Of a stretch of 64,000 nucleotides of DNA, positions 1 to 50,845 are shown piece after piece. Source of the stretch: a virus (Duplodnaviria; Heunggongvirae; Uroviricota; Caudoviricetes). The first letter of the stretch is position 1; each line of letters begins with the position of its first letter. Position numbers and translations under genes: made by a program. The notes under the pieces were generated by a model, which saw only the letters and a list, made by a program, of their open reading frames with translations, did not search any database and was not told the DNA's origin. The stretch spans positions 40,796 through 104,795 of IMG/VR virus record IMGVR_UViG_3300021399_000116; one strand, written 5' to 3'.

Positions 1-412
1 AGGAAATTCATCTGGACCTCACCTACATTTTCAAGTAGGTAGTGCTTATGGAGAAGCTGCACATGCTAAATATTATACAAATTATGTTAGAAGTGCAAAT
101 GGAGCAGCTGCACAGGCAGGTGTTTCTGGTACTGTTAAAAAAGAGGATAATACTATAGCAGGCAATAGTTCTATGAGTGGTGAAAGGTCTGGTCTAGCTA
201 AAGTAAATACTACTGGACATAGAGCAATTCCTGGTATCGGAGGAGCTGGCAATACTCCTGGAAATACTACAGACCGTATTGTAAACTCTATAGATGGAGT
301 ATCTGTAAAAATTATAAAATACTTAGATGAAATTAGAAAAGAACAAGAAGACCAGAGACAACTTATAAATGCTTTTAGCACTTCTCAACAAAGTATTATA
401 GACTATAGATAA
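1..412 (+). CDS. M23 family metallopeptidase domain protein, C-terminal part (5' end cut by the window edge)
   Basis: Open frame from position 2 to TAA at 410-412. Translation contains GPHLHFQVGSAYG, the HxH zinc site of M23/LytM peptidases. Its position just upstream of the baseplate genes suggests a tape-measure C-terminus or tail-associated lysin. Confidence 0.7.
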   Translation, partial: GNSSGPHLHFQVGSAYGEAAHAKYYTNYVRSANGAAAQAGVSGTVKKEDNTIAGNSSMSGERSGLAKVNTTGHRAIPGIGGAGNTPGNTTDRIVNSIDGVSVKIIKYLDEIRKEQEDQRQLINAFSTSQQSIIDYR

Positions 413-424
413 AGGAGGTAAAAA

Positions 425-1330
425 ATGAGTAGTAGAACAATGTATGTATATACACAATCTGGTAAAGGGTTAAATCTAAGAAGTGCTCCTAGTACTAGTA
501 GTAGAATTATCACTAGCTTTAAAGTGGGTACTGCTTTGCTGGTTGAGACTGATATAAAAGAATTATTAAATCATCCAGGTTGGGTAAAAGTACTACACCC
601 TGCTAGTGGGTACTGTTCTTTACAGTACTTAAAACCTACTAAAATTACTACTTCTACAAAAAGTAATACTAGTTCTAATAAGAGTAATACATACACTTTA
701 AAGAATGTACATCATGGAGATATAATAAACATGCAAAACCAGTCATGGTATGACTGTTGGATAGATAATTTTGTAACTGAAGAACATATAATTTTACCTC
801 AAACTCCAGTAGGTTGGGGAGAAAATTATTCTGCAAATTATGCAAATCAAGAGATAATAGGAAGTAGTAGACCTAGGTTAATGTACACTGGAACTAGCTT
901 AAGAACTATGACTTTTAGTTTACAGAATTTAACCAGAGATTATTTACCTAGTGGATTTGAATCTTTAGTAGAGTACGTTCATAAACTTCAATCACTATGT
1001 TTTCCAGAGTATAGTTCTACTGGTGTAGTTACTGCTCCAGACTGTCACTTACAGATAGGAGACAGAGGTTTTAGAGGAATATTTACTAGTGTAAGTGTTA
1101 GCTGGGGAGATGAAGTTTATAACTCAGGAGATAATTATAAAATTTTAGGTAGCTCTGGGAATACTAGAGGTATCAATAAAAGTGCTACAGGAGCTTACAG
1201 TGGTACAGATAAAAAGAAGTGGAGAATAAAAGGTGGAGAAAGAATAAGATGCAACGTAGAACTTGCTTTTACAAACACAAGACTTGGAGATGAAATTCCT
1301 GGAGCTACTACAATAAGTTTAAAAGGATAG
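425..1330 (+). CDS. Tail/baseplate-associated protein with N-terminal SH3b-like domain
   Basis: RBS AAAGGAGGT 6 nt upstream of the ATG. The N-terminal 70 aa (GLNLRSAPSTSS...GWVKV...GYCSLQYL) match the bacterial SH3 pattern. It sits between the lysin genes and the baseplate genes. Confidence 0.4.
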   Translation: MSSRTMYVYTQSGKGLNLRSAPSTSSRIITSFKVGTALLVETDIKELLNHPGWVKVLHPASGYCSLQYLKPTKITTSTKSNTSSNKSNTYTLKNVHHGDIINMQNQSWYDCWIDNFVTEEHIILPQTPVGWGENYSANYANQEIIGSSRPRLMYTGTSLRTMTFSLQNLTRDYLPSGFESLVEYVHKLQSLCFPEYSSTGVVTAPDCHLQIGDRGFRGIFTSVSVSWGDEVYNSGDNYKILGSSGNTRGINKSATGAYSGTDKKKWRIKGGERIRCNVELAFTNTRLGDEIPGATTISLKG

Positions 1331-5543: not shown

Positions 5544-7749
5544 TACAGTTGATGAAGCTTTAGACTATCAAGAAGAGTTGATTGAAGATATAAAGCATAC
5601 TTTAAGACTTAAAAAGTCCGGTTATTCAGATAATCCTGATGACCCTAATTATAGAAAACCTTATTTAGATGACTATGGAAATATATTAGAAACTCCTAAT
5701 GACTTAGGCAGTGTTTTATCAGTTTTAGATTTTATAGTAGAATATGCTAGGTCTAGAGAGAATGATGAACTTACTACATTAGCTAATGATTTAATAGAAC
5801 AGTGGTATAAAGTTTTTGAAATCAAAGACTCTGACAAAATAAAATTACCTTATAATAGAAAAGATTATTCTACAATTTTAGAGTATTTAAAACTTCAAGC
5901 AAAACAATTATCTAATGGAGAATGGGATGATTTTACAGATTCTGATATAGGAACAGTTTTATTAAAGTTAATGTCATTCTTAGCAGATATGGAGAACTAT
6001 AATGTAGATAAATCTATTGCAGAACTATATTTATCTACCTGTACAGAGAGGTCATCTGCATTACTTCTTTGTAAGTTAATAGGTTATAAGCCAAGACATT
6101 ATATGTCTGCTGTAACTACGATAAATTTAGGACCAGTAGAAGAAACTAATAATGTAGGAGAAATAGCTCCAGCATATATAGAAGATGGAACTATATTCCC
6201 TGCTGGTTCAACTTTTACAACTACTTCAGGACTTACTTTTACTACACTAAGAGATTATGAACTAGTAGAAGGCTACTGTACTTTGAAAGCTTATGAAGGT
6301 ACTTTAAAGACTGAAAGTTTTGCTTTATCAGATGTGTCTGAATTAGGAAGAATAGTACTTCCAGATTATGAAATTGCATTTAATACAGTTAAACTATTTA
6401 TAAATAATGAAGAATACACTCAAGTAGAAGATGTAGTAGTTAATACTGGAGATTTAGAATTTTCGGTACACTGCAATGAAGAAAGAGAAATTTACATACA
6501 ATTACCTAGTTTCTGGTCAGATATTTTAACTACTGCTAGTACTATAAAAGTTACTTATCTTCTAAGTAATGGAAAAGAAGGAAGAGTTGGAGCCGGTAAA
6601 GTAGTAGCATTTAACAGTGCTTGTACTGCTTCATCTTCAATAGAAATAATTTCTAATAGTAACTCAGTTGAAGGATATGACCCAGAAACTATTGCTGAAA
6701 TAAAAAGAAATGCTCCACTTTTTGCTAAAACTATGGATACTATAGTAACTATAAAAGACTTTGAGGATGTAGGCGGATTAGTAGATGGAATATCTGGTAT
6801 AAGAGCTTTAGATTATAATGACCCAGCATCTGGATTAATGCAACCTACGGCTGGACCTGGCGGATATGTAAATGACGCTTATAAAGTCAACATATATGTT
6901 TTACCGGACTGTAATGAGTGGGATGAAAATGAACCAGACAATAATTACTATAGAAATACAATTATAAAACGTAGACAAGATTGGGAATGGGATGATTTAC
7001 AATATGTAGCTGAAGAAGTAGAATATGTTTCACAGTCTCACGTAAATAACAATACTATAGTATTAGAAGGATTAGGAGCTAGCTATACTGACAAAGATGA
7101 CATAGTTTTAGGAGTAGACACTAGTAAAACAGCAACAAGTTTTTTGGCAACTTATGTAGAAGATAGTGATTCTTTGAACTCTGTTATTGGAGTTGCATAT
7201 ACTATAGATATTGTTGCAGATAATATAATAATCACTTTAAATGATAAATGGAGAGAGTATATGCCTACTACAACTTCTAAGTTTGATATATTCTTTAAGC
7301 AAGAACAAATTTTAACAGAAGCTGGTAGAAATCTTAAAAATACTATTACTAAGAAAAGACTACATTCTCTATGGATTACTTACTATGATGTAGATATAAT
7401 ACAACCTGAGATTGTTGTAGAAGTCTATATGGATAGTAGAAATACAGAATTTGAAAATGTAGCAGCTCAAGTAAAAGATTTAATATTAAAGCAATATTCT
7501 AGAGAATACTTAAAAGTAGGAGAACCAATATTTGCTAGTGTAATAGGTTCTAACATTTTAGATAATTTCGATTACATTAGATATGTAGAAGTTGGATTAC
7601 CTACTACTCAAGATGATTTGATAGAAGCTTTACCTAATGAATTTATAGATATAATACCACCTAATGTAAAAGTTTCTGCAATAGATTATAGAAATAAAAC
7701 TGCAGAAGCTGCTAACAGTACATACTACATAAGTTACAATCAAAATTAA
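5518..7749 (+). CDS. Baseplate J-like protein (large, possibly a J/I fusion)
   Basis: 743 aa ORF overlapping the gpW-like gene by 26 nt. It is called from position in the V-W-J order and from its size; no sharp motif was recognised. Confidence 0.5.
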   Translation: MKEVILMANTVDEALDYQEELIEDIKHTLRLKKSGYSDNPDDPNYRKPYLDDYGNILETPNDLGSVLSVLDFIVEYARSRENDELTTLANDLIEQWYKVFEIKDSDKIKLPYNRKDYSTILEYLKLQAKQLSNGEWDDFTDSDIGTVLLKLMSFLADMENYNVDKSIAELYLSTCTERSSALLLCKLIGYKPRHYMSAVTTINLGPVEETNNVGEIAPAYIEDGTIFPAGSTFTTTSGLTFTTLRDYELVEGYCTLKAYEGTLKTESFALSDVSELGRIVLPDYEIAFNTVKLFINNEEYTQVEDVVVNTGDLEFSVHCNEEREIYIQLPSFWSDILTTASTIKVTYLLSNGKEGRVGAGKVVAFNSACTASSSIEIISNSNSVEGYDPETIAEIKRNAPLFAKTMDTIVTIKDFEDVGGLVDGISGIRALDYNDPASGLMQPTAGPGGYVNDAYKVNIYVLPDCNEWDENEPDNNYYRNTIIKRRQDWEWDDLQYVAEEVEYVSQSHVNNNTIVLEGLGASYTDKDDIVLGVDTSKTATSFLATYVEDSDSLNSVIGVAYTIDIVADNIIITLNDKWREYMPTTTSKFDIFFKQEQILTEAGRNLKNTITKKRLHSLWITYYDVDIIQPEIVVEVYMDSRNTEFENVAAQVKDLILKQYSREYLKVGEPIFASVIGSNILDNFDYIRYVEVGLPTTQDDLIEALPNEFIDIIPPNVKVSAIDYRNKTAEAANSTYYISYNQN

Positions 7750-21090: not shown

Positions 21091-21404
21091 CACTTCAAAA
21101 CTTGAAAGATGAAATTACTGAAAAAGGTGAAATTCCTATGTATGGTATGAAATTTAGACTTCTAGATGATGATTTAGTTAGGATTTTTATTTCTAATAAT
21201 AAATTTGAAATGAGATATGATAAATTTGTAGGTACATCAGACCTAGGTTTTTCAACTAATATTATGAAGACAGAGTTAACTAAATTAACTATAGAGAAAG
21301 ATGAAAAACTTCCTCATAAGATGATTTTAGTAATTGATTTAAGACCTAAGAAAAAGAAGAAAGTAATTGATACAGGAATAAATGCAAGAATGAAATTAAA
21401 TTGA
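21087..21404 (+). CDS. Hypothetical protein
   Basis: 105 aa. Confidence 0.3.
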   Translation: MTLQNLKDEITEKGEIPMYGMKFRLLDDDLVRIFISNNKFEMRYDKFVGTSDLGFSTNIMKTELTKLTIEKDEKLPHKMILVIDLRPKKKKKVIDTGINARMKLN

Positions 21405-21418
21405 TTGGAGGTAATATT

Positions 21419-22585
21419 ATGAAAGCTTTGGCAATGTATATATTTTGTGGAAGCTTAGGAATAGGAATAATGCAAGCAGGTTTTAAGATAGATAAAGTAT
21501 TAGAAATAACTGATGAAATGTTGGAAGAAAATTCTAAACACTTTATTCATAACTATCCAGATATTCCCGTAATAAAGCCTTCATTATGGAATAATACTAT
21601 TTATAAGAATGAATTATTCAAAGAAAATTATGATTTATTAGCAGGTAATCCACCTTGTTCTGGACTATCTCAAATAAATAGACATGCTTCTTCAGACAAT
21701 CTTACAAATCAATATATGTATAATTTTATAGATACAGTATCTTATGTACAACCTAAAACATTCCTAATGGAGAATGCTCCAACTTTAATTAGTAGAGGCA
21801 AAGTAATTTTAGACTATATGGTATCAATTCTTAGCAGTGATTACTACATATACATAATAAGAGACTATGCTGGAAATCATAAAGTTCCAATGAAAAGACA
21901 AAGAACAATAGTACTTGGTTTTAGGAAAAATTTCTTTGAAGGAGTTCCAGTCTTAAAAGATTATGAAGAAGTTACAGGTGAAATTACTGCTGGTGAAGTT
22001 TTATCAGAGATTTCTGAAAATTCTCCTAATATGTATTTAGAAGAGAATAGAAGTTGTAAAGATTTAGAGAAATATTTAGAATATATACAAGTAAATAAGT
22101 CAATAATGCATTCTTTATCAGAATTTTCTGAAGATTTCATAAATAATTTAGATATATCTGAAAAAAGAAAGAAAAATATTTTAACTTTAAAAAGAAAGAT
22201 GAATGCTGGTAAAGGAGTATTTGATAAAACACCGTTTAAACTTGATAAAAATTTGGTAGCTCCTAGTATGACATCTTTATCAGAATTTATAAATCCAGTA
22301 TATGACAGACATTTATACATAAGAGAATATGCAAAACTTATGGGATATCCAGATGATTTTGAATTTGTAAAAGATGCAAAAGTTCCATACATTCAGTCTA
22401 TAGCTCAGGGAGTTCCGGTGAATTTTGCAAAATGGGCAGCTATGAATGTAAAAGATGCTCTAGAGAAGAAGTCTAAATTTTTAAAAGACATAGATATTGT
22501 AGTAGAAAATAGATGTAATCCTAAGAAGATAAAAACAATGTTTTATTCTAAGGAGAAATTTTTCAATACTGATAATATATGCTAA
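21419..22585 (+). CDS. DNA (cytosine-5)-methyltransferase-like protein
   Basis: The track begins at 21401, but RBS GGAGGT precedes the ATG at 21419. Motif I-like MYIFCGSLGIG, motif IV NPPCSGLS (PC catalytic Cys) and ENAP (ENV-like). Confidence 0.65.
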   Translation: MKALAMYIFCGSLGIGIMQAGFKIDKVLEITDEMLEENSKHFIHNYPDIPVIKPSLWNNTIYKNELFKENYDLLAGNPPCSGLSQINRHASSDNLTNQYMYNFIDTVSYVQPKTFLMENAPTLISRGKVILDYMVSILSSDYYIYIIRDYAGNHKVPMKRQRTIVLGFRKNFFEGVPVLKDYEEVTGEITAGEVLSEISENSPNMYLEENRSCKDLEKYLEYIQVNKSIMHSLSEFSEDFINNLDISEKRKKNILTLKRKMNAGKGVFDKTPFKLDKNLVAPSMTSLSEFINPVYDRHLYIREYAKLMGYPDDFEFVKDAKVPYIQSIAQGVPVNFAKWAAMNVKDALEKKSKFLKDIDIVVENRCNPKKIKTMFYSKEKFFNTDNIC

Positions 22586-28088: not shown

Positions 28089-28317
28089 GTTTTATGAACA
28101 TTTAGTAATTTCTGGGAGAGATGAGAATTTTCAAAACGATTTAACTAAAGCTTCTATAGCAGGTTGGGAAACAGTTCATATAAATTCTTTTCCAGTAGAA
28201 AAGCCAGATATGCTAAAACATGGCTATACTATAGAATTAATCTATACAGCAGTTTTAAGAAGATTAAGAAGCAGAGAGGAGTTAAAAGATGATAACAGAA
28301 AACTTGAAACAACATAG
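28078..28317 (+). CDS. Hypothetical protein
   Basis: 79 aa overlapping both neighbours. Confidence 0.3.
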   Translation: MENEFYEHLVISGRDENFQNDLTKASIAGWETVHINSFPVEKPDMLKHGYTIELIYTAVLRRLRSREELKDDNRKLETT

Positions 28318-29302
28318 AGAAGAACAGTGGACAGAACAATATTATAAAGAATCAAAAGAAATAATACAAAATAAAGATATACTTCCGATTGTTGTTCCAT
28401 CGTATAGAAGAGGATATGCTGCTTCTACTTTACAGGCTTTGAAAGATTTTCCTGAGTTAAAAGTAGTAGTATTTATATATGAAGAAGAGTTTGATTTATA
28501 TAGACATTTATTTGAAACATATCCTCATATACAATATCAACTATGCTCAGGATTTAGAGGAATTGCTCCTAAAAGAAAGTATATTACTGAAAGAATGGTA
28601 CAATTAGGAATGCCAGAATTTTTTGAGATAGATGATGATGCAACAGCATTTTTCTATACAAAACATGGTAGTATGAAAAAAGACCCTACAAAGTACAAAG
28701 CAGAGAAGACCCAGATTGACATACAAGACTTTTTCAGAATGTTCCAATATATTATTAAATATAAAGCGCTAGAAAAAATAGACTTATGCGGAATAATTTT
28801 TGATAACGGAGCTTGGGCTCAAGATTTAAGAACTTTACCTGATATTATTTATATCGGCGGACAAGCTTTTTGCTTTTATTTAGATGCAAAGGCTTGCTTA
28901 GACAAAGGATTGAACTATTATGTAGAAGATAAAATTTGGGAAGATTTTGATTTTTCAATGCAAGTAATAAATGCAGGGTTAAACTCTTGTCAAATAAGAT
29001 ATTTAACTGCTTCTACACCTACTATGACTCCCGGAGATTCAGTCGCTACTGCAGCTGGTTCACCTTGGGCACAGAAATCAGTAAATCTATATAAAAGATG
29101 GGGAGACTTGATTAGGTTTAAACCTATGAAGGGTGAGTTGAATGCTAAAATAAAATGGACTACTATTAGAAATCAACTTAAGAAAGACGGTCATTTAACT
29201 ATCACTTATAATCCAGTTTATATGGAGTTTATAAATAGAAATGATTATGATGGATTAACACATTATATAGAACAAGAAAAGAATAAAAATGAGGAGGTAT
29301 AA
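28289..29302 (+). CDS. Putative GT-A fold glycosyltransferase
   Basis: LPIVVPSYRRGYAASTLQAL resembles the GT2 N-terminal motif (IIPxYN), and EIDDDA is a DxD-like motif. The gene is adjacent to the dCMP hydroxymethylase. Assignment is weak. Confidence 0.4.
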   Translation: MITENLKQHREEQWTEQYYKESKEIIQNKDILPIVVPSYRRGYAASTLQALKDFPELKVVVFIYEEEFDLYRHLFETYPHIQYQLCSGFRGIAPKRKYITERMVQLGMPEFFEIDDDATAFFYTKHGSMKKDPTKYKAEKTQIDIQDFFRMFQYIIKYKALEKIDLCGIIFDNGAWAQDLRTLPDIIYIGGQAFCFYLDAKACLDKGLNYYVEDKIWEDFDFSMQVINAGLNSCQIRYLTASTPTMTPGDSVATAAGSPWAQKSVNLYKRWGDLIRFKPMKGELNAKIKWTTIRNQLKKDGHLTITYNPVYMEFINRNDYDGLTHYIEQEKNKNEEV

Positions 29303-29304
29303 TT

Positions 29305-36914: not shown

Positions 36915-38903
36915 ATGGCAAATAGATTTGGAAGAAGAAATAAAAAAGAAGATATAAAACCTGAAAATACTTCTCATACAGCTGAGTATTTATTAGAAAG
37001 TGACCAATCAGCTACAATTAATGGTCATCAAGCTTATAATTTCTTACAAGGTATAAGAAGTGTAGATGGCAATTACATAAACAATGATTTACTAATGGAT
37101 AAGATGTGTCAGGATTCAGTCATATCTGCAGCTTTAGATATATGGACAGAAGATGCTCTTCAAAAAGACCCTTTTACTGGTGAAATGTTTATTGTAGATG
37201 TAGATACAGTAGAAGATGACCCTGTAGCTAAAAAACTTTCAGATGGTTTATCTAAAAGACTAAATCATTTATTGAAGAAAGATTTAAGAGCAGAAAAATA
37301 TCTAGCTACTTGGTGTAAAAGAGTGTTAAAGTATGGTAATTGTTATTTAAAATTAGATTTTGCAGATAAGTTAACTGATGAAAAACTTAAACTTAAAGAA
37401 TCTGTATCTGATAAAGAAAGATTTGAAAAAATAGCTATTAAAACTATAGCTATGATGACTAACAATGAAGATTCTAAATTAGATTATGCTTTTGATAATC
37501 CTCAAAAAATGTTGCCTAAAGGGAAACTAAATGAAGCATATAAAGTAGATTATGAGTCTATGATGAGAAATAATATAAGTGTACCTAAAGAAGAAAAATT
37601 TACAACTGAAGTACTAAAAGAAGATGTTTTAACTAGTAAACAGGAAGAAAAGACAGTTAGAGGTAGATGGTATACTGAAATTTTAGGACATGGAACTAAT
37701 ATTTATGAATTATCTAGTAAACAGAAAGTAGTTGCTTACATAGATAGAGATGCTCCTAATAAATTTATAAAACCTGACAATATAATAAATTTTGCTAATA
37801 ATACAGGAAAACATAGAGTATCTTTTGAAGTTGGAGATGTATCTGATAAAGTAAATCAAAAAGAGTATTATTCTTTAGAAAGAGGAGAAGGTTTCTTAGA
37901 AAATGCTATGGTTGCGTGGCAAGTTCTTTCAGCCTTAGAAGATATTTTATTACTTACTAGAATGACTCGTTCTATACTATACAGAATATTTTCTATAGAG
38001 GTAGGTAACAAAGGAAATAAAGAAACAGCTCAGATTCTAGATAGATTAAAAAATAGATTAAAAATGGAAGAAACTATAGATATAAGAAGTAGAATATATA
38101 ATAGTACTTTAACTCAAGTTCCTTTAGCTGATTCAGTATTTATTCCAACACATAATGGTGTAGGTGTAACTGATGTTAAAACTGTTGGAGGAGATGTAAA
38201 TCTTAGAGATGCTATAGATTTAGACTATTTTAGAGACAAATTACATTCAGCTTTAAGAATCCCAGCTCCATACCTATCATACACAGAATCTTTACCTGGA
38301 GGAATAGGAGATAGTTCTTTAACTAGAATGGACATTAGATATTCTAGAACAGTTGCTAGAATTAAAGCAATTTTAGCAGAAGGACTAAAAGATATTTGTA
38401 TAAGATATTTACAGTTAACTATAGGAGATAGAGCTTTCGAAGAATTACCTGATTTTAGAATTAAGTTTGCTAGCACTAACTCAGCAGAAGATATATCTAG
38501 AGCTAATTTACAACAAACTTTTATGGAGACATTACAAAAGTCTTTAAACACATTGAAAGAATTAGGTATAGATATAGCTACAAATCCAGAAGGATATAAG
38601 AAGACTAGAGAAACTTTAATTAATGAATATTTTGGTAATACTTTAGCTGAAGCTATAAAAGCAGATGAAAGACTTACTTCAGTAACAGCTCCTACAGAGT
38701 TAGCAAATGATAAAACTGGAGGAAATAGTGGACCTTCTGATATGGGACCAGACACAGAGATAAACATAGACAGTGGACCTAGCGGAATGGGACCAGAAGC
38801 TCCAGAAGAAGGAGAAATACCTGAAGAAGATTTAGATAATGTAGAAGTAGGACCAGAGACTGGACCAGCTCCAGACACAGAAACAACTAATGAATTATCT
38901 TAG
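36915..38903 (+). CDS. Putative portal protein
   Basis: 662 aa ORF immediately downstream of terL, with an acidic Gly/Pro-repeat C-terminal tail. Called from synteny and size only. Confidence 0.5.
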   Translation: MANRFGRRNKKEDIKPENTSHTAEYLLESDQSATINGHQAYNFLQGIRSVDGNYINNDLLMDKMCQDSVISAALDIWTEDALQKDPFTGEMFIVDVDTVEDDPVAKKLSDGLSKRLNHLLKKDLRAEKYLATWCKRVLKYGNCYLKLDFADKLTDEKLKLKESVSDKERFEKIAIKTIAMMTNNEDSKLDYAFDNPQKMLPKGKLNEAYKVDYESMMRNNISVPKEEKFTTEVLKEDVLTSKQEEKTVRGRWYTEILGHGTNIYELSSKQKVVAYIDRDAPNKFIKPDNIINFANNTGKHRVSFEVGDVSDKVNQKEYYSLERGEGFLENAMVAWQVLSALEDILLLTRMTRSILYRIFSIEVGNKGNKETAQILDRLKNRLKMEETIDIRSRIYNSTLTQVPLADSVFIPTHNGVGVTDVKTVGGDVNLRDAIDLDYFRDKLHSALRIPAPYLSYTESLPGGIGDSSLTRMDIRYSRTVARIKAILAEGLKDICIRYLQLTIGDRAFEELPDFRIKFASTNSAEDISRANLQQTFMETLQKSLNTLKELGIDIATNPEGYKKTRETLINEYFGNTLAEAIKADERLTSVTAPTELANDKTGGNSGPSDMGPDTEINIDSGPSGMGPEAPEEGEIPEEDLDNVEVGPETGPAPDTETTNELS

Positions 38904-39944: not shown

Positions 39945-40859
39945 ATGCCATTATTTACTAATTATGGAAAACCTAAAGGACTTATAGTAAATTTCATGAA
40001 AGATATAGAACAAAGATATATACCAGCTCTCAACCAGCAGCTAGATACAAATATAAATAACTATCCATCTCTTACTAGAGAGACTTATGCGGTATATCAA
40101 GATGAAGAACAAGGAGTGTCAATAGAAATATCTAGTAATCATAGAGATATAGAAAATAGAGGAGACTTATTCGTAGCTGTATCTTATGATGGAATGAAAG
40201 AAGATGCTGGTATAATAGATTTAGACAATTTACAAGATGCTGTAAATATCACTCAATATTCTCTTCAAGAATTAGGCTTTAAAACACCTGAAGATAAGAA
40301 AAATGATGAAGCTGATGCAGAAGCTAAAGCAATGCAAGATAAAATAAACAAAGACTTAGAGGATAGAAAGAAAGCTGAAAGAAGAGATGAAATACTAAGA
40401 CAAGCAGAAGAAAGAAATCGAGGGACAGAAAACCAGTCTGACATAGAGACAGAACCTGAAGAAGACAATTATGAAGAAGAAAAAGATGAGTATGTTTCAG
40501 AGTTAAACAAAAAACTAACTTTTTTAAGTAAAGAAGCAGAAGGTGCTGTTGCAGAATTAGAATGGCTTACTCTTCCTGATAATATTCAAGGAAATTCTGC
40601 TGAATTTATACATATAGAGATGAATTTTACTCATGTGTCTGGTGAAAACTTTTTAATAGAAACTAAAAGAATAAATCCTAAAATACAGACTATTTGTAAT
40701 ATTCAAGATTGTATTGGATATGCAAATAAAGTGTCTGACAAACTTAAAGTAACTCCAACTATTATAATGAAGGATGAAAGAGGAAGAGATTTAGAACTTC
40801 CTAAGAATATGAAGGAACCTGAGGATGACTCAGATGATGATTTTTCAATTAATATATAA
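39945..40859 (+). CDS. Hypothetical acidic coiled-coil protein (scaffold-like?)
   Basis: 304 aa with RBS AAGGAGGT. The central region EADAEAKAMQDKINKDLEDRKKAERRDEILRQAEERN is charged and helical. Confidence 0.4.
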   Translation: MPLFTNYGKPKGLIVNFMKDIEQRYIPALNQQLDTNINNYPSLTRETYAVYQDEEQGVSIEISSNHRDIENRGDLFVAVSYDGMKEDAGIIDLDNLQDAVNITQYSLQELGFKTPEDKKNDEADAEAKAMQDKINKDLEDRKKAERRDEILRQAEERNRGTENQSDIETEPEEDNYEEEKDEYVSELNKKLTFLSKEAEGAVAELEWLTLPDNIQGNSAEFIHIEMNFTHVSGENFLIETKRINPKIQTICNIQDCIGYANKVSDKLKVTPTIIMKDERGRDLELPKNMKEPEDDSDDDFSINI

Positions 40860-41024: not shown

Positions 41025-41891
41025 TTGTCAACTGTTATGACTGAAGACGACTTAGATGTAGTTGTAAAGCTGATAACTGAGATTTTCGGTGATTTATACA
41101 TGAGAACAGGATTAATGCCTTGGCAAATAGATACAGCCAAGTGTCCAGAATCTCAACTAGAAGCTCTTAGTTATTTGATAGGGTATGATTGGAATCCTAA
41201 TTTAACCGCAGACCAACAAAGAATGGGAATAGACTTATATTGTTTAATTAGAAGAAATAGAGGTACTATTTTTGGACTAGAGAATTTAATTAGAACTTTC
41301 GGACAAACAGTGAAAGAATTTTATTCTAGTTCAGATTTAAGAGGTGTAGAAGTAATAGAGTATGGTTCTGGCGGTCCAGAGACTTTAGAGCCTAATATGT
41401 TTCCTGGAGATATAATAGTTAGAGCTCCAGATTTCTCTAGTATACTTAGAGATAGTATTTTCGATACTAAATTAGCTGGCACAAGATTATTCTTTGAGTA
41501 TTATATTTTCTTAGGAATATTTCATTTATCTATTACTACAGATTTTGGATGGGTAATAAGAATAACACCTGACATGTTAATACAAGGTTATGACCCTACA
41601 ATAGATGAATTTGCAGCGGGTTGGAATGTAACTTTAGGGCAATTACTGGAGCATCAACTAACTCATGGAATTAGAGGAAATATTGCTAATAGTGTAACTA
41701 AAGTTGGACATAATCAAAACTCATTGCATGGAGAACATCATGGAAATTTAGTAGCTGGAATACAAGTATTAACTTACTATAAAGCTCCGTGGGTAAATGG
41801 ATTTATTCTAAATGTTCCAGGGCTTACTAATTATAGAGGATTTGTACAACCTACAGAACATATTGAAACTGAAGAAATACTTTACAAATAA
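41025..41891 (+). CDS. Hypothetical structural-module protein
   Basis: 288 aa. The start is uncertain: TTG at 41025 or ATG at 41037. Confidence 0.4.
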   Translation: MSTVMTEDDLDVVVKLITEIFGDLYMRTGLMPWQIDTAKCPESQLEALSYLIGYDWNPNLTADQQRMGIDLYCLIRRNRGTIFGLENLIRTFGQTVKEFYSSSDLRGVEVIEYGSGGPETLEPNMFPGDIIVRAPDFSSILRDSIFDTKLAGTRLFFEYYIFLGIFHLSITTDFGWVIRITPDMLIQGYDPTIDEFAAGWNVTLGQLLEHQLTHGIRGNIANSVTKVGHNQNSLHGEHHGNLVAGIQVLTYYKAPWVNGFILNVPGLTNYRGFVQPTEHIETEEILYK

Positions 41892-42274: not shown

Positions 42275-42820
42275 ATGGAAGAAAATTTAGATGTAAAACT
42301 TACAGGTTTTAATGGAGAAGAAGTATCTAAAGAGGAGTTTGTAGACCAGGTAGTAAATGCTATAAAAGAAGATATGGCTCCATCAGATAGAGAAACTCTA
42401 GAAGCAATTCCTTTAGTGGAAATAGACAATACAGAACAAGATATTACTGATACTTTATTAGAGAAATATACTGAGTTAGACTTAGAAATATCTAAAGTAG
42501 TTTTAGAACAAGAACAATATAGAAAAGAACATAAAGAAGTCTTTGATAAAATGAAAGAGTATGAAGACAAGATTGCAAAAATAGAGCAACAACAAGAAGC
42601 TGTTAAAGGTGACTTAAAGACTAAAATGAGAGAATTGAATAAGAAAGAAATAATAGGCATAAGATTTACAGCAAAATACACAGCTCCATATACTAGAAAG
42701 AAATTTGATACAGACCAATTTTATAAAGATTATGCAGAAGATACAGCTATGTATAAGAAATATGTAAGTACTACTAATGTATCTGAAAGTATTAAAATTT
42801 CTGAGACTAAGAAGAAATAG
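42275..42820 (+). CDS. Hypothetical acidic protein
   Basis: 181 aa. Confidence 0.4.
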   Translation: MEENLDVKLTGFNGEEVSKEEFVDQVVNAIKEDMAPSDRETLEAIPLVEIDNTEQDITDTLLEKYTELDLEISKVVLEQEQYRKEHKEVFDKMKEYEDKIAKIEQQQEAVKGDLKTKMRELNKKEIIGIRFTAKYTAPYTRKKFDTDQFYKDYAEDTAMYKKYVSTTNVSESIKISETKKK

Positions 42821-42829
42821 GAGGATTTT

Positions 42830-43219
42830 ATGAAGAAGATAGTTACAGATAATACTACAATTTTTGTAAATCATATTAAATTTATACGAATTATGGAAGC
42901 TGGAGTAAGTCAAACTAAAGAGAAAAGATATACAGTAACAGCAGTTTTAGAAGATTGTACTGATATAGATATTGATAATATAAATTGCATAATATTAAAT
43001 TATGATGAAAACGGAGAGTTACAGAAAACTAGAGAAGAAGCTCAATTATTTAAAGATTTTTTAGAAAGAAAACTAGATAATCAATGGGAGACTATATTTA
43101 CTTTAGATGTATTAAAAGAAGTAAATGACTATATAAACTATAGTAAACAAGAGCATAAATCTACGATGGTAGATATTAGTAAATTAAAATTAAATGAAAA
43201 AGGAGAAGTTGTACGATGA
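42830..43219 (+). CDS. Hypothetical protein
   Basis: 129 aa with RBS AGGAGGA. Confidence 0.4.
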   Translation: MKKIVTDNTTIFVNHIKFIRIMEAGVSQTKEKRYTVTAVLEDCTDIDIDNINCIILNYDENGELQKTREEAQLFKDFLERKLDNQWETIFTLDVLKEVNDYINYSKQEHKSTMVDISKLKLNEKGEVVR

Positions 43220-44589
43220 AGATTTTATCAGAAAGAGACCCTTTAGAAGTATTTTCAGAAGCTTCTAAAATATTAAACAATGCAGTAGAGCATACTTTAG
43301 GTCCGGATGGAACTAATACTGCAGTTCACTTTCAAAATTTTTACAACATAATAAACGATGGAAAATCTATAGTAGAGCAATTAACATCTTTAGACCCAGA
43401 AATAGCTCCTGCTATGGAAACTTTAAAGCAATCAGCTTTTGAAACTAATAGAAAAGCAGGAGATGGAACTACAAGTACTATAATTATAATGAACCAACTA
43501 ATACAAGGAGCTAAAAAATACTTAGAAGAAAATCCTAAGAAAAGTCAAGTACAAGTAGCTAAAAGAATTTTAGATGTAGAAAAAAGATTACAAGATTTAA
43601 TTCTAAAGCAAAAAATAGAGATAGATAATAAATTATATGAGAAAGTCGCTAAAGTGTCTCTAGGGTCATCCTCATATTCACAGATGCTATCAGAAGCTTT
43701 TACTTTTTTGAATGGAGAAGGAGTTCCAGCTTTAGTTAAATCAGACATACCCGGAGTAGAATTAGAAAAGATAGATGGAGTAAATCTAACTAAAACTAGT
43801 GTGGTAAGCTCAATGTTTATAGATTTATTACCTAGTAAAGAACTTAAAGATGTTCAAGTTATTACTTTATTTCAAGTAATAGATAGATTTGAAGAAATGT
43901 TTCAACTAGTAAAATTGTTAAATCAAAATAAAGAAAAATATACAGTCTTATTATATAATGAAATAAGTTCTTCAGCTTTAGAAAATTTATTGTTTAATCT
44001 TTCACAAGATAAAAGTAAGATAGTTCCTATATGTATGAAAGACTATGGAAAAGACATGAATAATATGTTAGATGAAATAGCTAAATATACTGAAACAGAG
44101 ATTATAGATGGAGGAAGCTTAAAAACTACAGATATTTCTAAGATAAAAATAGGAAAAGTAGATAAGGCTATACTTTCTCAAAATTCTTTAGTTTTAATCA
44201 AAGATGAAGTTCCAGAGTTTGAGTATAAACTTATTTCTAGAAAAGCTTGTTTGATTAGAGCAGGAGGAGCTACTAAAATAGACATGGAAGACACTTATAG
44301 AAGACTAGAAGATGCTATTTATTCTCTTGCAGGAGCTATTAAAAACGGAGCATTTTTTGGTGGCTATGGTGTACCTTATAGAAGCTTAGCAGATGATGTA
44401 GATGATGTAGATGTTCCTAAGTTTATAGTAGACTCTCTAAAGTACATAAATCTTAGTATTTTTGATGAAAATGCAGACTCAGATGCAGTAGACTCTGCTT
44501 TAGTAATTTCAGAGGTAATTCGTAATTCTTTCTTTACTGCAGCACAAGTAATTACTACAAATGCACTAATCTATGACAATATAAGATAA
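43216..44589 (+). CDS. Chaperonin Cpn60/GroEL-family homologue (short, 457 aa)
   Basis: ASKILNNAVEHTLGPDGTNTAV...DGKSIVEQL...AGDGTTSTIIIMNQLIQGAKKYL is collinear with the GroEL equatorial domain (VKVTLGPKGRNVVL...DGVTVAKEI...AGDGTTTATVLAQAI), including the GDGTT nucleotide-binding loop. Confidence 0.75.
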   Translation: MKILSERDPLEVFSEASKILNNAVEHTLGPDGTNTAVHFQNFYNIINDGKSIVEQLTSLDPEIAPAMETLKQSAFETNRKAGDGTTSTIIIMNQLIQGAKKYLEENPKKSQVQVAKRILDVEKRLQDLILKQKIEIDNKLYEKVAKVSLGSSSYSQMLSEAFTFLNGEGVPALVKSDIPGVELEKIDGVNLTKTSVVSSMFIDLLPSKELKDVQVITLFQVIDRFEEMFQLVKLLNQNKEKYTVLLYNEISSSALENLLFNLSQDKSKIVPICMKDYGKDMNNMLDEIAKYTETEIIDGGSLKTTDISKIKIGKVDKAILSQNSLVLIKDEVPEFEYKLISRKACLIRAGGATKIDMEDTYRRLEDAIYSLAGAIKNGAFFGGYGVPYRSLADDVDDVDVPKFIVDSLKYINLSIFDENADSDAVDSALVISEVIRNSFFTAAQVITTNALIYDNIR

Positions 44590-44905
44590 AAATATAAAAG
44601 TTAACTGAGACTAACCTTAAAAGGTTAGTCTTTTTTCATGTCTCTAATCCTAGTTTAAATAATTAGTTTACACTTTTATCTCAAAAAAATTTTTCATTTA
44701 GAGTCTTTTAACTTTGAATTAGTTTTTGAAAAGATTATGGAAAATTGACTATTTACAAATTCAAAATTTTGTGATATTAATAGGTTAGAAAGGAGGAAAG
44801 AGAGTATAAAATCTATATGAAACGGACTGGAGAGAAAGCTAACTTAAAGTAAATTTAACTCTCATACTTGAAGCAGCTTTAAAGAGAAATTTTGGAGGGA
44901 TTATT

Positions 44906-45793
44906 ATGAAAAAGAAGGTTATTAATACCGCTTATGACAAGTGGTTAAAAAATTTAGTTGGAGAAAGAGAGTTATTTGAAGAACTAACAGATGAAGAAGT
45001 TTATAAGATAATTTTAAAAGTATCAGAAATTAGTTTTATTCGTAATTCAGTTATAGATAATTTTTATACCTATGAAGATATAGCTAATGAAATTTTTAAA
45101 AGCTATTTAATCAGAGATTGGGAGAAAGATTTGAAAAACTTCTCTGATGTTAAAACTGAAGAATTTCCATTTTATGATGAAAAAACAGGTAAATATTTTA
45201 GTTCTTGGAGACCTAGAACAGAGAAAAAAGGTTTTGAAAGAATGAAAGCTAGAAAGATGACTATAGAGCACTTTAGTAATCTTATCTACAATGAAGTAAA
45301 GAATTATGTTGCTGGTTATATGAGAAATAAGAAGTTTAAAGAGATGGTGAGAGAAGCAATTTCTTTAGATTTAGACTCAGGGAGTGTTGATGAAGGTATT
45401 GCATTCATAGAAACAGTAGAAGATTCAAGACAAACTTTTAATAGCAATAATGTTATAAGTGAAAATACTTTAGAGAATACTTCTAAAAACTTAGAAGATA
45501 TAAACTTAGAGTATAATTATAGTATAGAAATAGATAGAGAAGTTAAAGTACTATCTTATGGAAATTTGTTAGAGTTGTATAAATATTTAGACTCTGGAAA
45601 AAGAGTAACATCAAAAGAAGTTTTAGAACATATTATATATAAAGGAAGCAAAGTTATTTCTGCAGAAAATAAAAGATTTGTAGAAGAATTTATTGCTAAC
45701 TTTAGAAAATATCTATTAGAAAACAAGATAGTTTCAGTTACAAAATACATAAATAATAGAGGAAAGGAGAAAAATAGTTATGCTTTTGAATAA
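44906..45793 (+). CDS. Hypothetical protein
   Basis: 295 aa with RBS GGAGGG. Confidence 0.4.
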   Translation: MKKKVINTAYDKWLKNLVGERELFEELTDEEVYKIILKVSEISFIRNSVIDNFYTYEDIANEIFKSYLIRDWEKDLKNFSDVKTEEFPFYDEKTGKYFSSWRPRTEKKGFERMKARKMTIEHFSNLIYNEVKNYVAGYMRNKKFKEMVREAISLDLDSGSVDEGIAFIETVEDSRQTFNSNNVISENTLENTSKNLEDINLEYNYSIEIDREVKVLSYGNLLELYKYLDSGKRVTSKEVLEHIIYKGSKVISAENKRFVEEFIANFRKYLLENKIVSVTKYINNRGKEKNSYAFE

Positions 45794-46097
45794 TTATATT
45801 AAGGTAAAAGAATTAACAGATAATATGATGGTTGATGATATGTTAGAGAAGTATGATGATACTTCTCCATACATGTTTTGTAGAATTTTAGACATAGATG
45901 CTAAAGCTTTAGAAAAATTGTCTAATGAAACAGATATACATGGTAACAAACTTGAAATTCATAAACTTTTCAATGAATCTGTCTTAGTAGTTAAAAGAGT
46001 TACTAAGATTAGAGGATTTAAGGGATTATACATTCAAGTGTCAGACATTATAGAAATAATTCCTAAAGATGAATATCAAAAATATGTTTACAAATAA
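45780..46097 (+). CDS. Hypothetical protein
   Basis: 105 aa. Confidence 0.35.
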   Translation: MLLNNYIKVKELTDNMMVDDMLEKYDDTSPYMFCRILDIDAKALEKLSNETDIHGNKLEIHKLFNESVLVVKRVTKIRGFKGLYIQVSDIIEIIPKDEYQKYVYK

Positions 46098-46130: not shown

Positions 46131-46748
46131 ATGGGAGAAGTTGTAGATTTTCAAAAGGCTAAAGAAGAAATAACAGAAAATAAAACTAATGAGAATGTAA
46201 ATACTCTAAAACAACAAATAGCAGATAACATGATGCTTCAAAAGTGTATAAAAGTAATTTCTAATATTCCACTTTATGATGTAGACCCTGAAACTAATGA
46301 AGTAGTAGATAAAGATTATGATTATCCTGCATTGTTAGAAGAGTATAAGGCAAATGTTTTAGCTAATAAAGAAAAGTTTGAATCTTTGGGTAAACCGTCA
46401 GAAGCACAGACTAGTTTTTATTATCAACTATTTCAGATGGGATATAGAACTTTTGGAGCTAAATTCTTTAAACAGATGTGTATGAATGAAGTAAACTGTG
46501 TTCAAATGTTTATTGGTATATGGAGTATTATAGCTGGATTAGAGGAGATGTCTAACGCAACTGTAGATATGGATAATGAGCTTAGAGCTTATAAATCTAT
46601 TAAATTGACTGATGAGCAAAAAGAAAAATTAGCTGAAGAATTAAAGAAAACACCTGAAGAATATATGCAAGAAATGATGCAAACTGTAGAAGAACTAGAA
46701 AAAAGTCCAGAAGCAGAACAAGCTTCTGAAGATAAAGTAGAAGAATAA
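46131..46748 (+). CDS. Hypothetical acidic protein
   Basis: 205 aa with RBS AAGGAGGTG. Confidence 0.4.
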   Translation: MGEVVDFQKAKEEITENKTNENVNTLKQQIADNMMLQKCIKVISNIPLYDVDPETNEVVDKDYDYPALLEEYKANVLANKEKFESLGKPSEAQTSFYYQLFQMGYRTFGAKFFKQMCMNEVNCVQMFIGIWSIIAGLEEMSNATVDMDNELRAYKSIKLTDEQKEKLAEELKKTPEEYMQEMMQTVEELEKSPEAEQASEDKVEE

Positions 46749-46817
46749 ACATATTATTTATTAAGAAAGCCGATAGCATAGCGATAGGCAAATTTAAAAT
46801 TTTAGGAGGAATTTAAA

Positions 46818-47921
46818 ATGGGAGAAAATGATTTAGATTTAGAACAACAATTAGCAACATTAGGAGTAAGCTTAGGAGGAATTACTTCATCTAAAGATGA
46901 AATACCTGTACCTAAAACTACAGTAGCTACTCCATACACACCAGAAAATCCAACAAATGCAGGAGTAGTAACTAATAGTATAGTACAACCTGCACAAACA
47001 GTGCAACAAACAGTTCAACAACAAGTAAATGAACAAGCACAGGCTCAAGTAGTTCAACAAACTACGACAAATCCTCAAGCAGGAGTATCATATACTACAG
47101 TTCAACAAACAGTTAGTAAGCCAGTAGCAAAGCCTCAACTTCAGCCTCAACAAGATGAAGAATTAGTATTTATAGATTTAGCTCATGCAGTAAATACTCA
47201 AAAAACACCTTGGCTAAGATTAAAAGATAATGAATACTCAAGAGTTTTATTTTTAGGACTAGATAAAATACTACCTCAAAAAATGCACTATATTAAAGGT
47301 CTAGGCTGGTGTAAATGTCTTTCTACTTATAATGAAGATGGTTGGTTAGAAACACCTGCTCAATGTTGTAAGAAACTAGTAAATACACCTACTGGTCCAA
47401 TGTTGTTCCCTAGATTAGATGAAGAAGGAAACGAATTAAAGGCTAAAAGTAGATTTTTAATACCAGTTATAGAATACCCAGTAGATAAATCTAATGCTAA
47501 TAAAATAGTTCCCGGACAATTACCTAAGTTGAAAATGTGGAATATGAATGCTGTAGAATGGGGAGAATTAAGAGAAGGTGTTCAAGCAATTTCTGAAAAT
47601 CCTGATGATTTATCTACTGCAGATTTATCAAATGTAGATTTTATATTACATAAAGATACTACAGGTAGATTTAAAACTATTAGTGTAAAAGTAACACCTA
47701 AGTGTTTAAGAGAAAATTATAAAGATGCTATAAATGCAGAAATAGCAAAAGCTGATAGAGATTTTTATATAACAGCTGTAAAGGAAGCAAGAAAAGTAGT
47801 TTCAGAGGAAACTATGGCTCAAACTTTAGATTCTTTAGAGGCTGCTACAGAAGCAGTGAATAATGCAGTAAATCAAGTTATAGAGAATAACACAATGGGA
47901 AATCAAATGTTAGATATTTAA
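46818..47921 (+). CDS. Hypothetical protein with a Gln/Val-rich N-terminal linker
   Basis: 367 aa with RBS TAGGAGGA. The N-terminal 100 aa are low complexity (QQTVQQQVNEQAQAQVVQQ). Confidence 0.4.
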   Translation: MGENDLDLEQQLATLGVSLGGITSSKDEIPVPKTTVATPYTPENPTNAGVVTNSIVQPAQTVQQTVQQQVNEQAQAQVVQQTTTNPQAGVSYTTVQQTVSKPVAKPQLQPQQDEELVFIDLAHAVNTQKTPWLRLKDNEYSRVLFLGLDKILPQKMHYIKGLGWCKCLSTYNEDGWLETPAQCCKKLVNTPTGPMLFPRLDEEGNELKAKSRFLIPVIEYPVDKSNANKIVPGQLPKLKMWNMNAVEWGELREGVQAISENPDDLSTADLSNVDFILHKDTTGRFKTISVKVTPKCLRENYKDAINAEIAKADRDFYITAVKEARKVVSEETMAQTLDSLEAATEAVNNAVNQVIENNTMGNQMLDI

Positions 47922-50281: not shown

Positions 50282-50845
50282 ATGGCTTTAGGAAAAGTTA
50301 CATTAGCAGCTAGACAAAGACAAATGCTTGAATTTATGGATAACTCTAAAAACTATAGGTTTATAGGATTAGGTAAAAGAACACCTTGGCCAGTAGAGGA
50401 AGAACCACCAGAGCCAGATGAAACTATGACAGACTTAGAAGAAATAATAGGACTTCAAAGAGTAGATTATTATAAATATGCTAAACTGATAAAGAATCCG
50501 ACTACTTTACAAAAAAGAACTGGTGTTTATTATAAAGGTCTTTATTATTCTGTAACTCAAGACTCAGAAGTAGCCATAAATGACGGATATACAGATGTAA
50601 TAATAGGAATAACATTTGATAGAGATACTATAGCAGCTATTCCTATAGATGTATCTTTTAGACAAGTAGGTCTTTTTGATACTGTAAATGCTACTTCTAG
50701 TGAGATTCAATATGGTATTTCAGCAGATGCTTGGAACAATAAATCTACGGCAGATAAAGGAATGTTAGTAGCTGTAGAAAATAGAGCTCCAGTTACAAGA
50801 CAAGATGACCAGACAGAGCAAGTAATAATGCTTGTATCGTTTTAA
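50282..50845 (+). CDS. Hypothetical protein
   Basis: 187 aa. Confidence 0.35.
   Translation: MALGKVTLAARQRQMLEFMDNSKNYRFIGLGKRTPWPVEEEPPEPDETMTDLEEIIGLQRVDYYKYAKLIKNPTTLQKRTGVYYKGLYYSVTQDSEVAINDGYTDVIIGITFDRDTIAAIPIDVSFRQVGLFDTVNATSSEIQYGISADAWNNKSTADKGMLVAVENRAPVTRQDDQTEQVIMLVSF

Follow-up and report, generated by a model that had tools for sequence, protein, structure and literature searches.

A compact GroEL-like phage chaperonin and its probable, sequence-cryptic GroES-fold partner

The 64,000-nucleotide (nt) stretch of phage DNA analysed here (positions 40,796 to 104,795 of the IMG/VR virus record IMGVR_UViG_3300021399_000116, Caudoviricetes; hereafter the window) encodes a chaperonin of the Cpn60/TCP-1 superfamily that is only 457 amino acids (aa) long, and close to it a 105-aa protein that is predicted to adopt the GroES fold. 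We consider it probable that these proteins constitute a two-part machine, in which an ATP-driven compact chaperonin, probably a single ring, is closed by the small protein as its lid. An earlier reading of this DNA, made from the sequence alone, had proposed a phage-encoded short form of the GroEL family that lacks about 90 residues; this is borne out by sequence, profile and fold, the difference in length from Escherichia coli GroEL being 91 residues (457 vs 548 aa). The features that matter most for this view are the following.

43216..44589, + strand: compact chaperonin of the Cpn60/GroEL superfamily, 457 aa (PF00118, PHROG and PDB matches, hhalign, AlphaFold2 model, Foldseek)
43456..43476, + strand: AGDGTTS nucleotide-binding loop, residues 81-87, equivalent to GroEL 85-91 (D83, G84 and T85 invariant in the family)
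44200..44241, + strand: modelled coil linker, residues ~329-342, in place of apical helices K/L (27-residue gap, GroEL 336-362, in every alignment)
44440..44490, + strand: equatorial deletion site, chaperonin residues ~409-425 (GroEL 449-466 and 470-484 missing in the residue map)
45780..46097, + strand: 105-aa protein of predicted Cpn10/GroES fold, probable co-chaperonin, with a candidate mobile loop at residues ~13-30 (predicted fold, synteny)

The chaperonin open reading frame (ORF) starts with ATG, preceded at 9-10 nt by an AAGGAG Shine-Dalgarno sequence. Its product passes the gathering threshold of Pfam family PF00118 (Cpn60_TCP1; E=1.7e-22, 80.3 bits against a cut-off of 34.3, residues 20-396) and matches PHROG 5725 'chaperonin groEL' (E=6e-41). 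In a sequence search of the PDB, it matched Mycobacterium tuberculosis GroEL2 (E=2.6e-22) and E. coli GroEL (~1e-14), while the group II chaperonins matched solely over its N-terminal ~150-200 residues. When the profile of the 44-member family was aligned with E. coli GroEL using hhalign, the probability was 99.6-99.9% across GroEL residues 1-526, and the identity to bacterial GroEL is 17-20%. The protein reaches none of the NCBIfam GroEL cut-offs: the GroEL models score 91-107 bits, including the equivalog TIGR02348 (91.3 vs 582.1 bits) and the best subfamily model, NF009487 (107.2 bits vs a cut-off of 352). Because all these curated cut-offs are failed, it should be called a GroEL-like chaperonin rather than GroEL. 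A group II (thermosome/CCT-like) origin was rejected, as the corresponding models score at most 47 bits (cut-offs 400-800), the apical helical protrusion is absent and the apical domain is smaller than that of GroEL. Judged by these scores, the protein is nearer to group I than to group II.

Fold prediction, which the sequence-only reading had proposed as a check, recovered a chaperonin architecture in which all three domains are retained. The AlphaFold2 model, built on the 44-sequence alignment, has a mean predicted local distance difference test score of 89.1 and a predicted template modelling (TM) score of 0.71, and contains no disordered segments. A Foldseek search of the PDB matched it to E. 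coli GroEL 1KP8 (1kp8_A) with E=4e-30 and a query-normalised TM score of 0.84. Since closed or apo structures of GroEL and mitochondrial Hsp60 score 0.80-0.85 and GroES-bound open states ~0.6, the model is best described as a three-domain subunit in the closed conformation, with equatorial (~1-135 and 378-457), intermediate (~136-186 and 344-377) and apical (~187-343) domains. In the case of individual residues, we took equivalences to GroEL from the hhalign map and scored as invariant what is identical in all 44 family sequences. The collinearity with the equatorial N-terminus of GroEL and its GDGTT loop, which had already been noticed from the letters alone, extends to the whole ATP site: invariant are T27/G29/P30 (GroEL T30/G32/P33), D48 (D52), D83/G84/T85 (D87/G88/T89), D366 (D398), G382/G385 (G414/G416) and D426 (D495), as are the equivalents of GroEL G53 and of the hinge glycines G192 and G410. 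The position of GroEL K51 is occupied by an invariant Asn. The positions of apical helices H and I remain hydrophobic (F229, V232, L255, L259 and F260), and the ring-building stem-loop and terminal strands are kept as in GroEL, together with the hydrophobic H/I groove. There is no conservation at Y199, and most sequences have Lys in place of E386, which abolishes the R197-E386 salt bridge.

The residue map leaves five GroEL segments without a counterpart in the chaperonin (336-362, 428-432, 449-466, 470-484 and 527-548), corresponding to about 17% of the GroEL sequence. The helix assignments for these segments follow the established GroEL literature. Segment 336-362 comprises helix K plus the next loop; the remaining 13 residues are coil in the model, and DSSP finds it helix-free between strands 325-328 and 343-349, so that helices K and L are effectively lost. 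The equatorial deletions take out the inter-ring contact residues R452, E461, S463 and V464 as well as the nucleotide-contacting hairpin N479-A481, and the C-terminal GGM tail (527-548) is absent, the protein stopping at R457. The quadruple change R452E/E461A/S463A/V464A defines the engineered single-ring GroEL mutant SR1, the mutated positions of which are exactly those lost in this natural deletion; the natural assembly is probably single-ringed as well. In second-tier relatives (490-502 aa, ~30% identity), helices K/L and the tail are likewise missing, but more of the equatorial segment is kept; the apical deletion is therefore the older, shared one, and equatorial trimming is most extreme in the subfamily of the window.

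Chaperonins of this short form make up a conserved family. Searching 5.8 billion proteins returned 546 matches, and among the best 120 of these nearly all are 452-494 aa long, share 38-84% identity with the chaperonin and, in many cases, lie on contigs of 107-132 kb; dozens of homologues thus span no more than 452-494 aa from first to last residue. An exhaustive hidden Markov model (HMM) search of 1.84 billion cluster representatives revealed a compact core of about seven clusters at 50% identity (457-494 aa, >470 bits) and a second tier at ~330 bits (475-502 aa), below which the scores fall to generic GroEL-like proteins near 200 bits. Both termini are conserved across the family (M1, L4, I452, I456 and the invariant R457), and the ratio of nonsynonymous to synonymous substitution rates (dN/dS) against close relatives is 0.15-0.27, showing that the gene is under strong purifying selection. 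Because the homologues are equally short, both termini are conserved and dN/dS is low, the shortness of the chaperonin is not due to truncation or a mis-called ORF. Relatives are encoded by a 128,933-bp viral contig of IMG/VR and by 132.5-kb contigs binned in 'Bacilli bacterium' metagenome-assembled genomes (MAGs) from goat duodenum, and one fragment carries a Romboutsia label; in public databases, family members are unnamed, hypothetical or automatically labelled 'chaperonin GroEL'. Among the cultured phages of INPHARED, none exceeds ~25% identity to the chaperonin, and at the DNA level neither the chaperonin gene nor a 24-kb stretch found a match in the phage collection; hence, there is no close cultured relative in that collection. 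The GroEL-like viral models in BFVD are all 511-609 aa long.

In the case of the small protein, sequence searches alone would give the impression of a lid-less system. When all 181 ORFs of the window were searched with E. coli GroES in phmmer, no Cpn10 was detected (best E=0.15; E=5.4 for the 105-aa ORF itself), Pfam detected no Cpn10 among 10 neighbours of the chaperonin, and the 105-aa ORF has zero matches in Pfam (including PF00166), NCBIfam and PHROG. Its PDB sequence search was empty as well, and hhalign of its family against GroES and a phage Cpn10 gave a probability of <1%. As a positive control, Pfam recognised the Cpn10 of Cellulophaga phage Calle_1 (E=2e-6); since Pfam detects only the latter, the 105-aa protein is far more divergent. 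That impression of a lid-less system is, however, probably wrong in view of the structural model, according to which the 105-aa protein has a GroES beta-barrel fold. The best structural matches of this model are true co-chaperonins, and from rank 6 onward the GroES fold is also found in other proteins. The strands are predicted in the order 6-12, loop, 31-39, variable region, 67-72, 77-79, 82-86 and 90-95, an order that agrees one for one with the topology of GroES. The candidate loop at 13-30, between strands 6-12 and 31-39, occupies the position of the mobile loop. It is hydrophobic at 16-18 and 21-22 around G20 (55 of 60 sequences) and is modelled as an ordered hairpin, with only a tentative register relative to the IVL tripeptide of GroES. 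The candidate mobile-loop tip is conserved in the family as hydrophobic-[D/N]-G-hydrophobic; in GroES, small hydrophobic residues after a conserved glycine form the key motif (PMC5649160).

The position of the gene points in the same direction. In all 12 short-chaperonin loci searched with the family profile (11 of them independent, with chaperonin identities of 39-84%), the 105-aa gene is the second gene downstream of the chaperonin on the same strand, and the profile has no match in the control loci (E. coli, an AR9-like phage, cr108_1, the TM7 phage and Calle_1). The family comprises 83 members of ~100 aa that were previously unannotated. Based on the model and the synteny, the 105-aa protein is the probable co-chaperonin of the chaperonin. 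The sequence-only reading had referred to phage chaperonins that work without a co-chaperonin; this background probably does not apply here, given the Cpn10-fold gene two genes downstream in every relative examined. On the 146-kb contig L020, which encodes a 502-aa second-tier chaperonin, a convincing Cpn10-fold gene was not seen near the chaperonin; a 214-aa ORF ~5 kb upstream of it (79..723) gives a weak match to the Cpn10-fold profile (E=2e-5, 16 bits) and may represent a lid protein that is longer or fused, or else a chance match.

Comparison of the window with three distant relatives delimits a conserved block that consists of a 181-aa gene, the chaperonin and then genes of 295, 105, 205 and 367 aa. 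Its other elements are as follows (L005, L006 and L007 being loci of relatives).

42275..42820, + strand: conserved 181-aa gene, syntenic in relatives (homologues in L005, L006 and L007; phrog_6244, unknown function)
44607..44632, + strand: terminator-like hairpin with an 11-bp stem, a 4-nt loop and a T-run, 18 nt past the chaperonin stop
44906..45793, + strand: conserved 295-aa gene that separates the 105-aa gene from the chaperonin (L005 and L007 have homologues at this position)
46131..47921, + strand: two conserved syntenic genes, of 205 aa and of 367 aa (Cys-rich), conserved in the compared relatives

The hairpin is a consensus match only, and four such hairpins were found in the scanned region against 1.3 expected. 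Because the chaperonin gene is followed by this hairpin and by a 317-nt gap in front of the 295-aa gene, and because the end of the 295-aa gene overlaps the 105-aa gene, the large and small subunits may lie on adjacent transcription units rather than in one tight operon. Each of the two overlapping genes has a strong Shine-Dalgarno sequence, and they appear to be translationally coupled through the overlap of 14 nt. All other loci have a gene of 228-270 aa at the position of the 295-aa gene, matched by position alone. The 295-aa product has no Pfam, PHROG or NCBIfam assignment, and in the PDB only a marginal match to a protein of the peptidyl-arginine deiminase family (E=8.5e-4); it may serve as a third component or be a client. 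Neither family models nor the PDB gave informative matches for the 205-aa and 367-aa proteins, the PDB matches of the latter being marginal or due to chance. The 367-aa protein (46818..47921), syntenic in all relatives compared, has an N-terminal third rich in Q, T and V and a Cys cluster 'WCKC...CC'; the idea that it is a zinc-binding single-stranded-DNA-binding protein is pure speculation. A 129-aa ORF directly upstream (42830..43219), whose stop overlaps the chaperonin start in ATGA, was considered as a coupled co-factor and discarded, as it is not conserved at this position in relatives and has no family match.

In the two-part machine that we propose, the compact subunit, representing a group I-like GroEL lineage pared down to about 455-490 residues, would hydrolyse ATP and, because the inter-ring segment of GroEL is deleted, would probably assemble into one heptameric ring. 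Non-native phage protein would be captured in the hydrophobic H/I groove of the ring, and the Gly-hydrophobic hairpin of the 105-aa protein would dock into this groove like the GroES mobile loop, placing a lid on the ring and enclosing the client in a single-ring cycle resembling that of mitochondrial Hsp60/Hsp10. The loss of helices K/L and of the tails would alter the wall and the floor of the folding chamber. During infection, chaperonin and lid would jointly act on at least one phage protein, folding or holding it. A stricter version of this scheme, which we put forward only tentatively, is an obligately single-ring, minimised cage made of a ~455-aa Cpn60 and a cryptic lid, perhaps with the product of the 230-295-aa gene as a third component or client. 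If true, the family would be a distinct chaperonin subgroup with an altered cavity geometry and an allosteric cycle free of ring-ring communication, and other 'lid-less' phage chaperonins might be suspected of having undetected lids.

The proposal of a lidded machine has to be weighed against the possibility that the chaperonin is a lid-less holdase or aggregation preventer of the type of EL gp146, OBP gp246 and AR9 gp228, whose cycle of client binding and release would depend on ATP but involve no encapsulation, the 105-aa protein having an unrelated role. Several points speak for this alternative and hence against a lid: these three proteins, which are all the phage chaperonins studied biochemically, are co-chaperonin-independent, and two of them are single-ring heptamers (PMC9598537, PMC7185714); a terminator-like hairpin follows the chaperonin gene; and the GroES fold, seen in other proteins from rank 6 of the structural matches, is not confined to co-chaperonins. 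We nevertheless regard a lid-less holdase as rather unlikely, since the small gene is syntenic in 12 of 12 loci over chaperonin identities of 39-84%, the top structural matches of its product are specifically true co-chaperonins, its Gly-hydrophobic loop lies at the mobile-loop position, and the chaperonin is no nearer to the AR9 type (20-23% identity) than to bacterial GroEL.

The lid could also be the GroES of the host, the phage providing only the large subunit of a hybrid machine. Such an option has been raised for viral contigs with GroEL only (PMC5649160), and it would agree with the groove of helices H/I, which is still hydrophobic, and with the absence of a sequence-detectable Cpn10 from the 64-kb window. 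It is, however, improbable in the light of the remodelled apical domain, which has neither Y199 nor helices K/L, of the finding that EL gp146 does not bind GroES (PMC7185714), and of the phage gene with a GroES fold that is conserved nearby. We give still less credit to the view that the protein is a repurposed or decaying homologue with a non-folding role, serving for instance as decoy, scaffold or anti-defence factor, in which case the deletions would mark the loss of chaperonin function. The extent of the loss, which includes the nucleotide-contacting N479-A481, the scores far under the curated GroEL cut-offs and the conserved neighbour genes without known function would fit such a history. 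It is hard to reconcile with the invariance of the catalytic and Mg/phosphate-binding residues, the strong purifying selection, a confident three-domain model without any disordered part, and deletions that are clean and kept across a deep family.

Compared with the bacterial GroEL/GroES system (E. coli, PDB 1KP8/1AON), the phage system is alike in its predicted three-domain fold, its ATP motifs (TLGP, DG, GDGTT, EDA, GxG and the D495 equivalent), its hydrophobic H/I groove and a partner gene with a predicted GroES fold. It differs in that the chaperonin lacks helices K/L, the inter-ring segment, the N479-A481 hairpin and the GGM tail, and in that Cpn10 profiles fail to detect the partner, whose gene is set apart from that of the chaperonin by another gene. 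Mitochondrial Hsp60/Hsp10 and engineered GroEL SR1 are models of how a single ring plus lid can complete the folding cycle, although both are full length and have helices K/L. The co-chaperonins T4 gp31 and RB49 CocO represent another arrangement: gp31 works with the host GroEL, T4 encoding no large subunit, whereas here the phage would supply both parts. The shortened chaperonins of the crAss-like phage cr108_1 (494 aa) and of the TM7 phage DolZOral124_53_65 (480 aa), already deposited in GenBank and neither characterised, are likewise trimmed in the C-terminal equatorial segment and lack the tail; however, their identity to the present chaperonin is 21-22%, the helix K/L region is at least partly kept, and their loci contain no 105-aa homologue. 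The matches 'Staphylococcus phage SA 1306 Kay' and faecal 'Bacteriophage sp.' were rejected as short forms, being full-length GroELs of 538-540 aa in unverified records; L008 (OR844996.1) and L011 (MT835992.1), UNVERIFIED and unannotated with full-length GroELs of this size, may be bacterial sequence.

The phage chaperonins EL gp146, OBP gp246 and AR9 gp228 resemble the present one in being divergent GroEL homologues without a GGM-type tail, for which single rings are documented (heptamers for OBP and AR9; EL splits into single rings with ATP). They are full-length proteins of ~550-563 aa that keep helices K/L (at an unusual position in AR9) and are encoded by jumbo phages without an identified co-chaperonin; the present chaperonin is ~100 residues shorter, belongs to ~130-kb phages and has a conserved GroES-fold neighbour. 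With the AR9-type protein of phage Goe21 it shares 20-23.5% identity, which makes it no closer to this group than to bacterial GroEL, and Foldseek scores the AR9 chaperonin like any other GroEL. The viral GroEL>GroES operons of marine phages (PMC5649160; Cellulophaga phage Calle_1), in which mobile-loop variants have been described (PMC5649160), share with the present arrangement a large and a small phage subunit with the large one upstream. Their GroEL is ~520 aa and their Cpn10 is recognisable by Pfam, in contrast to the trimmed large subunit, the cryptic small one and the intervening 230-295-aa gene found here.

Phage GroELs, including a Firmicutes-phage chaperonin, AR9, as well as the GroES analogues gp31 and CocO and viral GroEL>GroES pairs were thus known already (PMC9598537, PMC7185714, PMC5649160), and the advance made here is incremental rather than surprising. 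According to the sequence-only reading, a 457-aa chaperonin in a Firmicutes phage was not known to have been described. As to the short form this still holds, as among open-access papers and preprints we found none that describes a similarly shortened phage chaperonin or the small protein that accompanies it; as to Firmicutes phages in general it does not, since AR9 gp228 of a Bacillus subtilis phage has been published as a full-length single-ring heptamer (PMC9598537). What is new is the conserved combination of deletions, together with a sequence-cryptic partner of predicted GroES fold, in a lineage of ~110-130-kb phages whose closest relatives come from the ruminant gut. Phage chaperonins serve in arguments on the origin of encapsulation and of ring-ring allostery, and the three studied so far were all reported to be lid-less. 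The present family sheds exactly those parts of GroEL that serve as ring-ring contact, cavity wall (K/L) and cavity floor (tail) while keeping the ATP site, and may be regarded as a natural minimal chaperonin. Its putative partner was missed by all sequence models; failure to find a co-chaperonin in a phage genome can thus be an artefact of annotation, which is a concrete reason to revisit EL/OBP/AR9-type phages by structure. The ~100-aa family of 83 members can now receive a label, and a compact single-ring chaperonin with its lid could become a tool for co-expression.

All genes of the window are on the + strand, and its GC content is ~29%. Its structural genes include a tail lysin, a baseplate wedge, a T4-type portal (36915..38903; 4.3 kb upstream of the chaperonin), a Tail_P2_I-like gene at 41025 and a baseplate-wedge-like gene at 50282; it also encodes a UvsX-like recombinase, an SbcCD-like nuclease, a clamp loader, methyltransferases, a thymidylate-synthase-like enzyme and a glucosyltransferase. 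The neighbours of the chaperonin module in relatives are genes for a RecA-like protein, the PIF1 helicase, S-adenosylmethionine synthetase or thymidine kinase, as well as nucleotide-metabolism genes. The placement of the chaperonin in a head/structural module, as proposed earlier, therefore fits the nearby portal and baseplate-like genes, but not the mixture with replication genes in the window nor the position of the module beside replication genes in relatives. Among the large unassigned ORFs of the window, neither a major capsid protein nor an obvious client was detected with Pfam and PHROGs. A Firmicutes host is plausible from indirect evidence, namely the GC content of ~29%, the strong Shine-Dalgarno sites, the Bacilli/Romboutsia MAG bins and the SpoVS genes of relatives; the SpoVS homologues are in L005 and L006, and the window has none.

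Several other genes deserve mention. At 28289..30348, a glucosyltransferase-like gene (phrog_842 'beta-glucosyl-HMC-alpha-glucosyltransferase', E=2e-19) and a thymidylate-synthase-family gene (phrog_160, E=4e-48) are separated by one small ORF, a pair that suggests synthesis of a hydroxymethyl-pyrimidine followed by its glucosylation, and hence hypermodified phage DNA. The 114-aa ORF at 29305..29649 is 71% identical to an L007 protein (7272..7718) with a Tad2-like (anti-Thoeris) domain, PF11195, and is a possible anti-defence gene; in L007, the Tad2-like gene lies directly upstream of the chaperonin. In the 497-aa protein at 31259..32752, SPFH/Band 7 (E=7e-22) and flotillin (E=8e-9) domains were recognised; proteins of such a membrane-scaffold type are unusual in phages. 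The methyltransferase at 15404..16720 matches phrog_9968 with E=3.5e-162, which is exceptionally strong for an otherwise very divergent genome, and a second DNA methyltransferase is at 21401..22585. A single tRNA-Thr gene (anticodon TGT; 34077..34151) lies upstream of the portal region, in a stretch of ~1.3 kb (33567..34916) without any listed ORF of at least 90 aa. Finally, L005 (CAYDCR010000056.1) carries at 1..567, ~7 kb upstream of its chaperonin, an IS605 OrfB / Cas12f-like TnpB gene.

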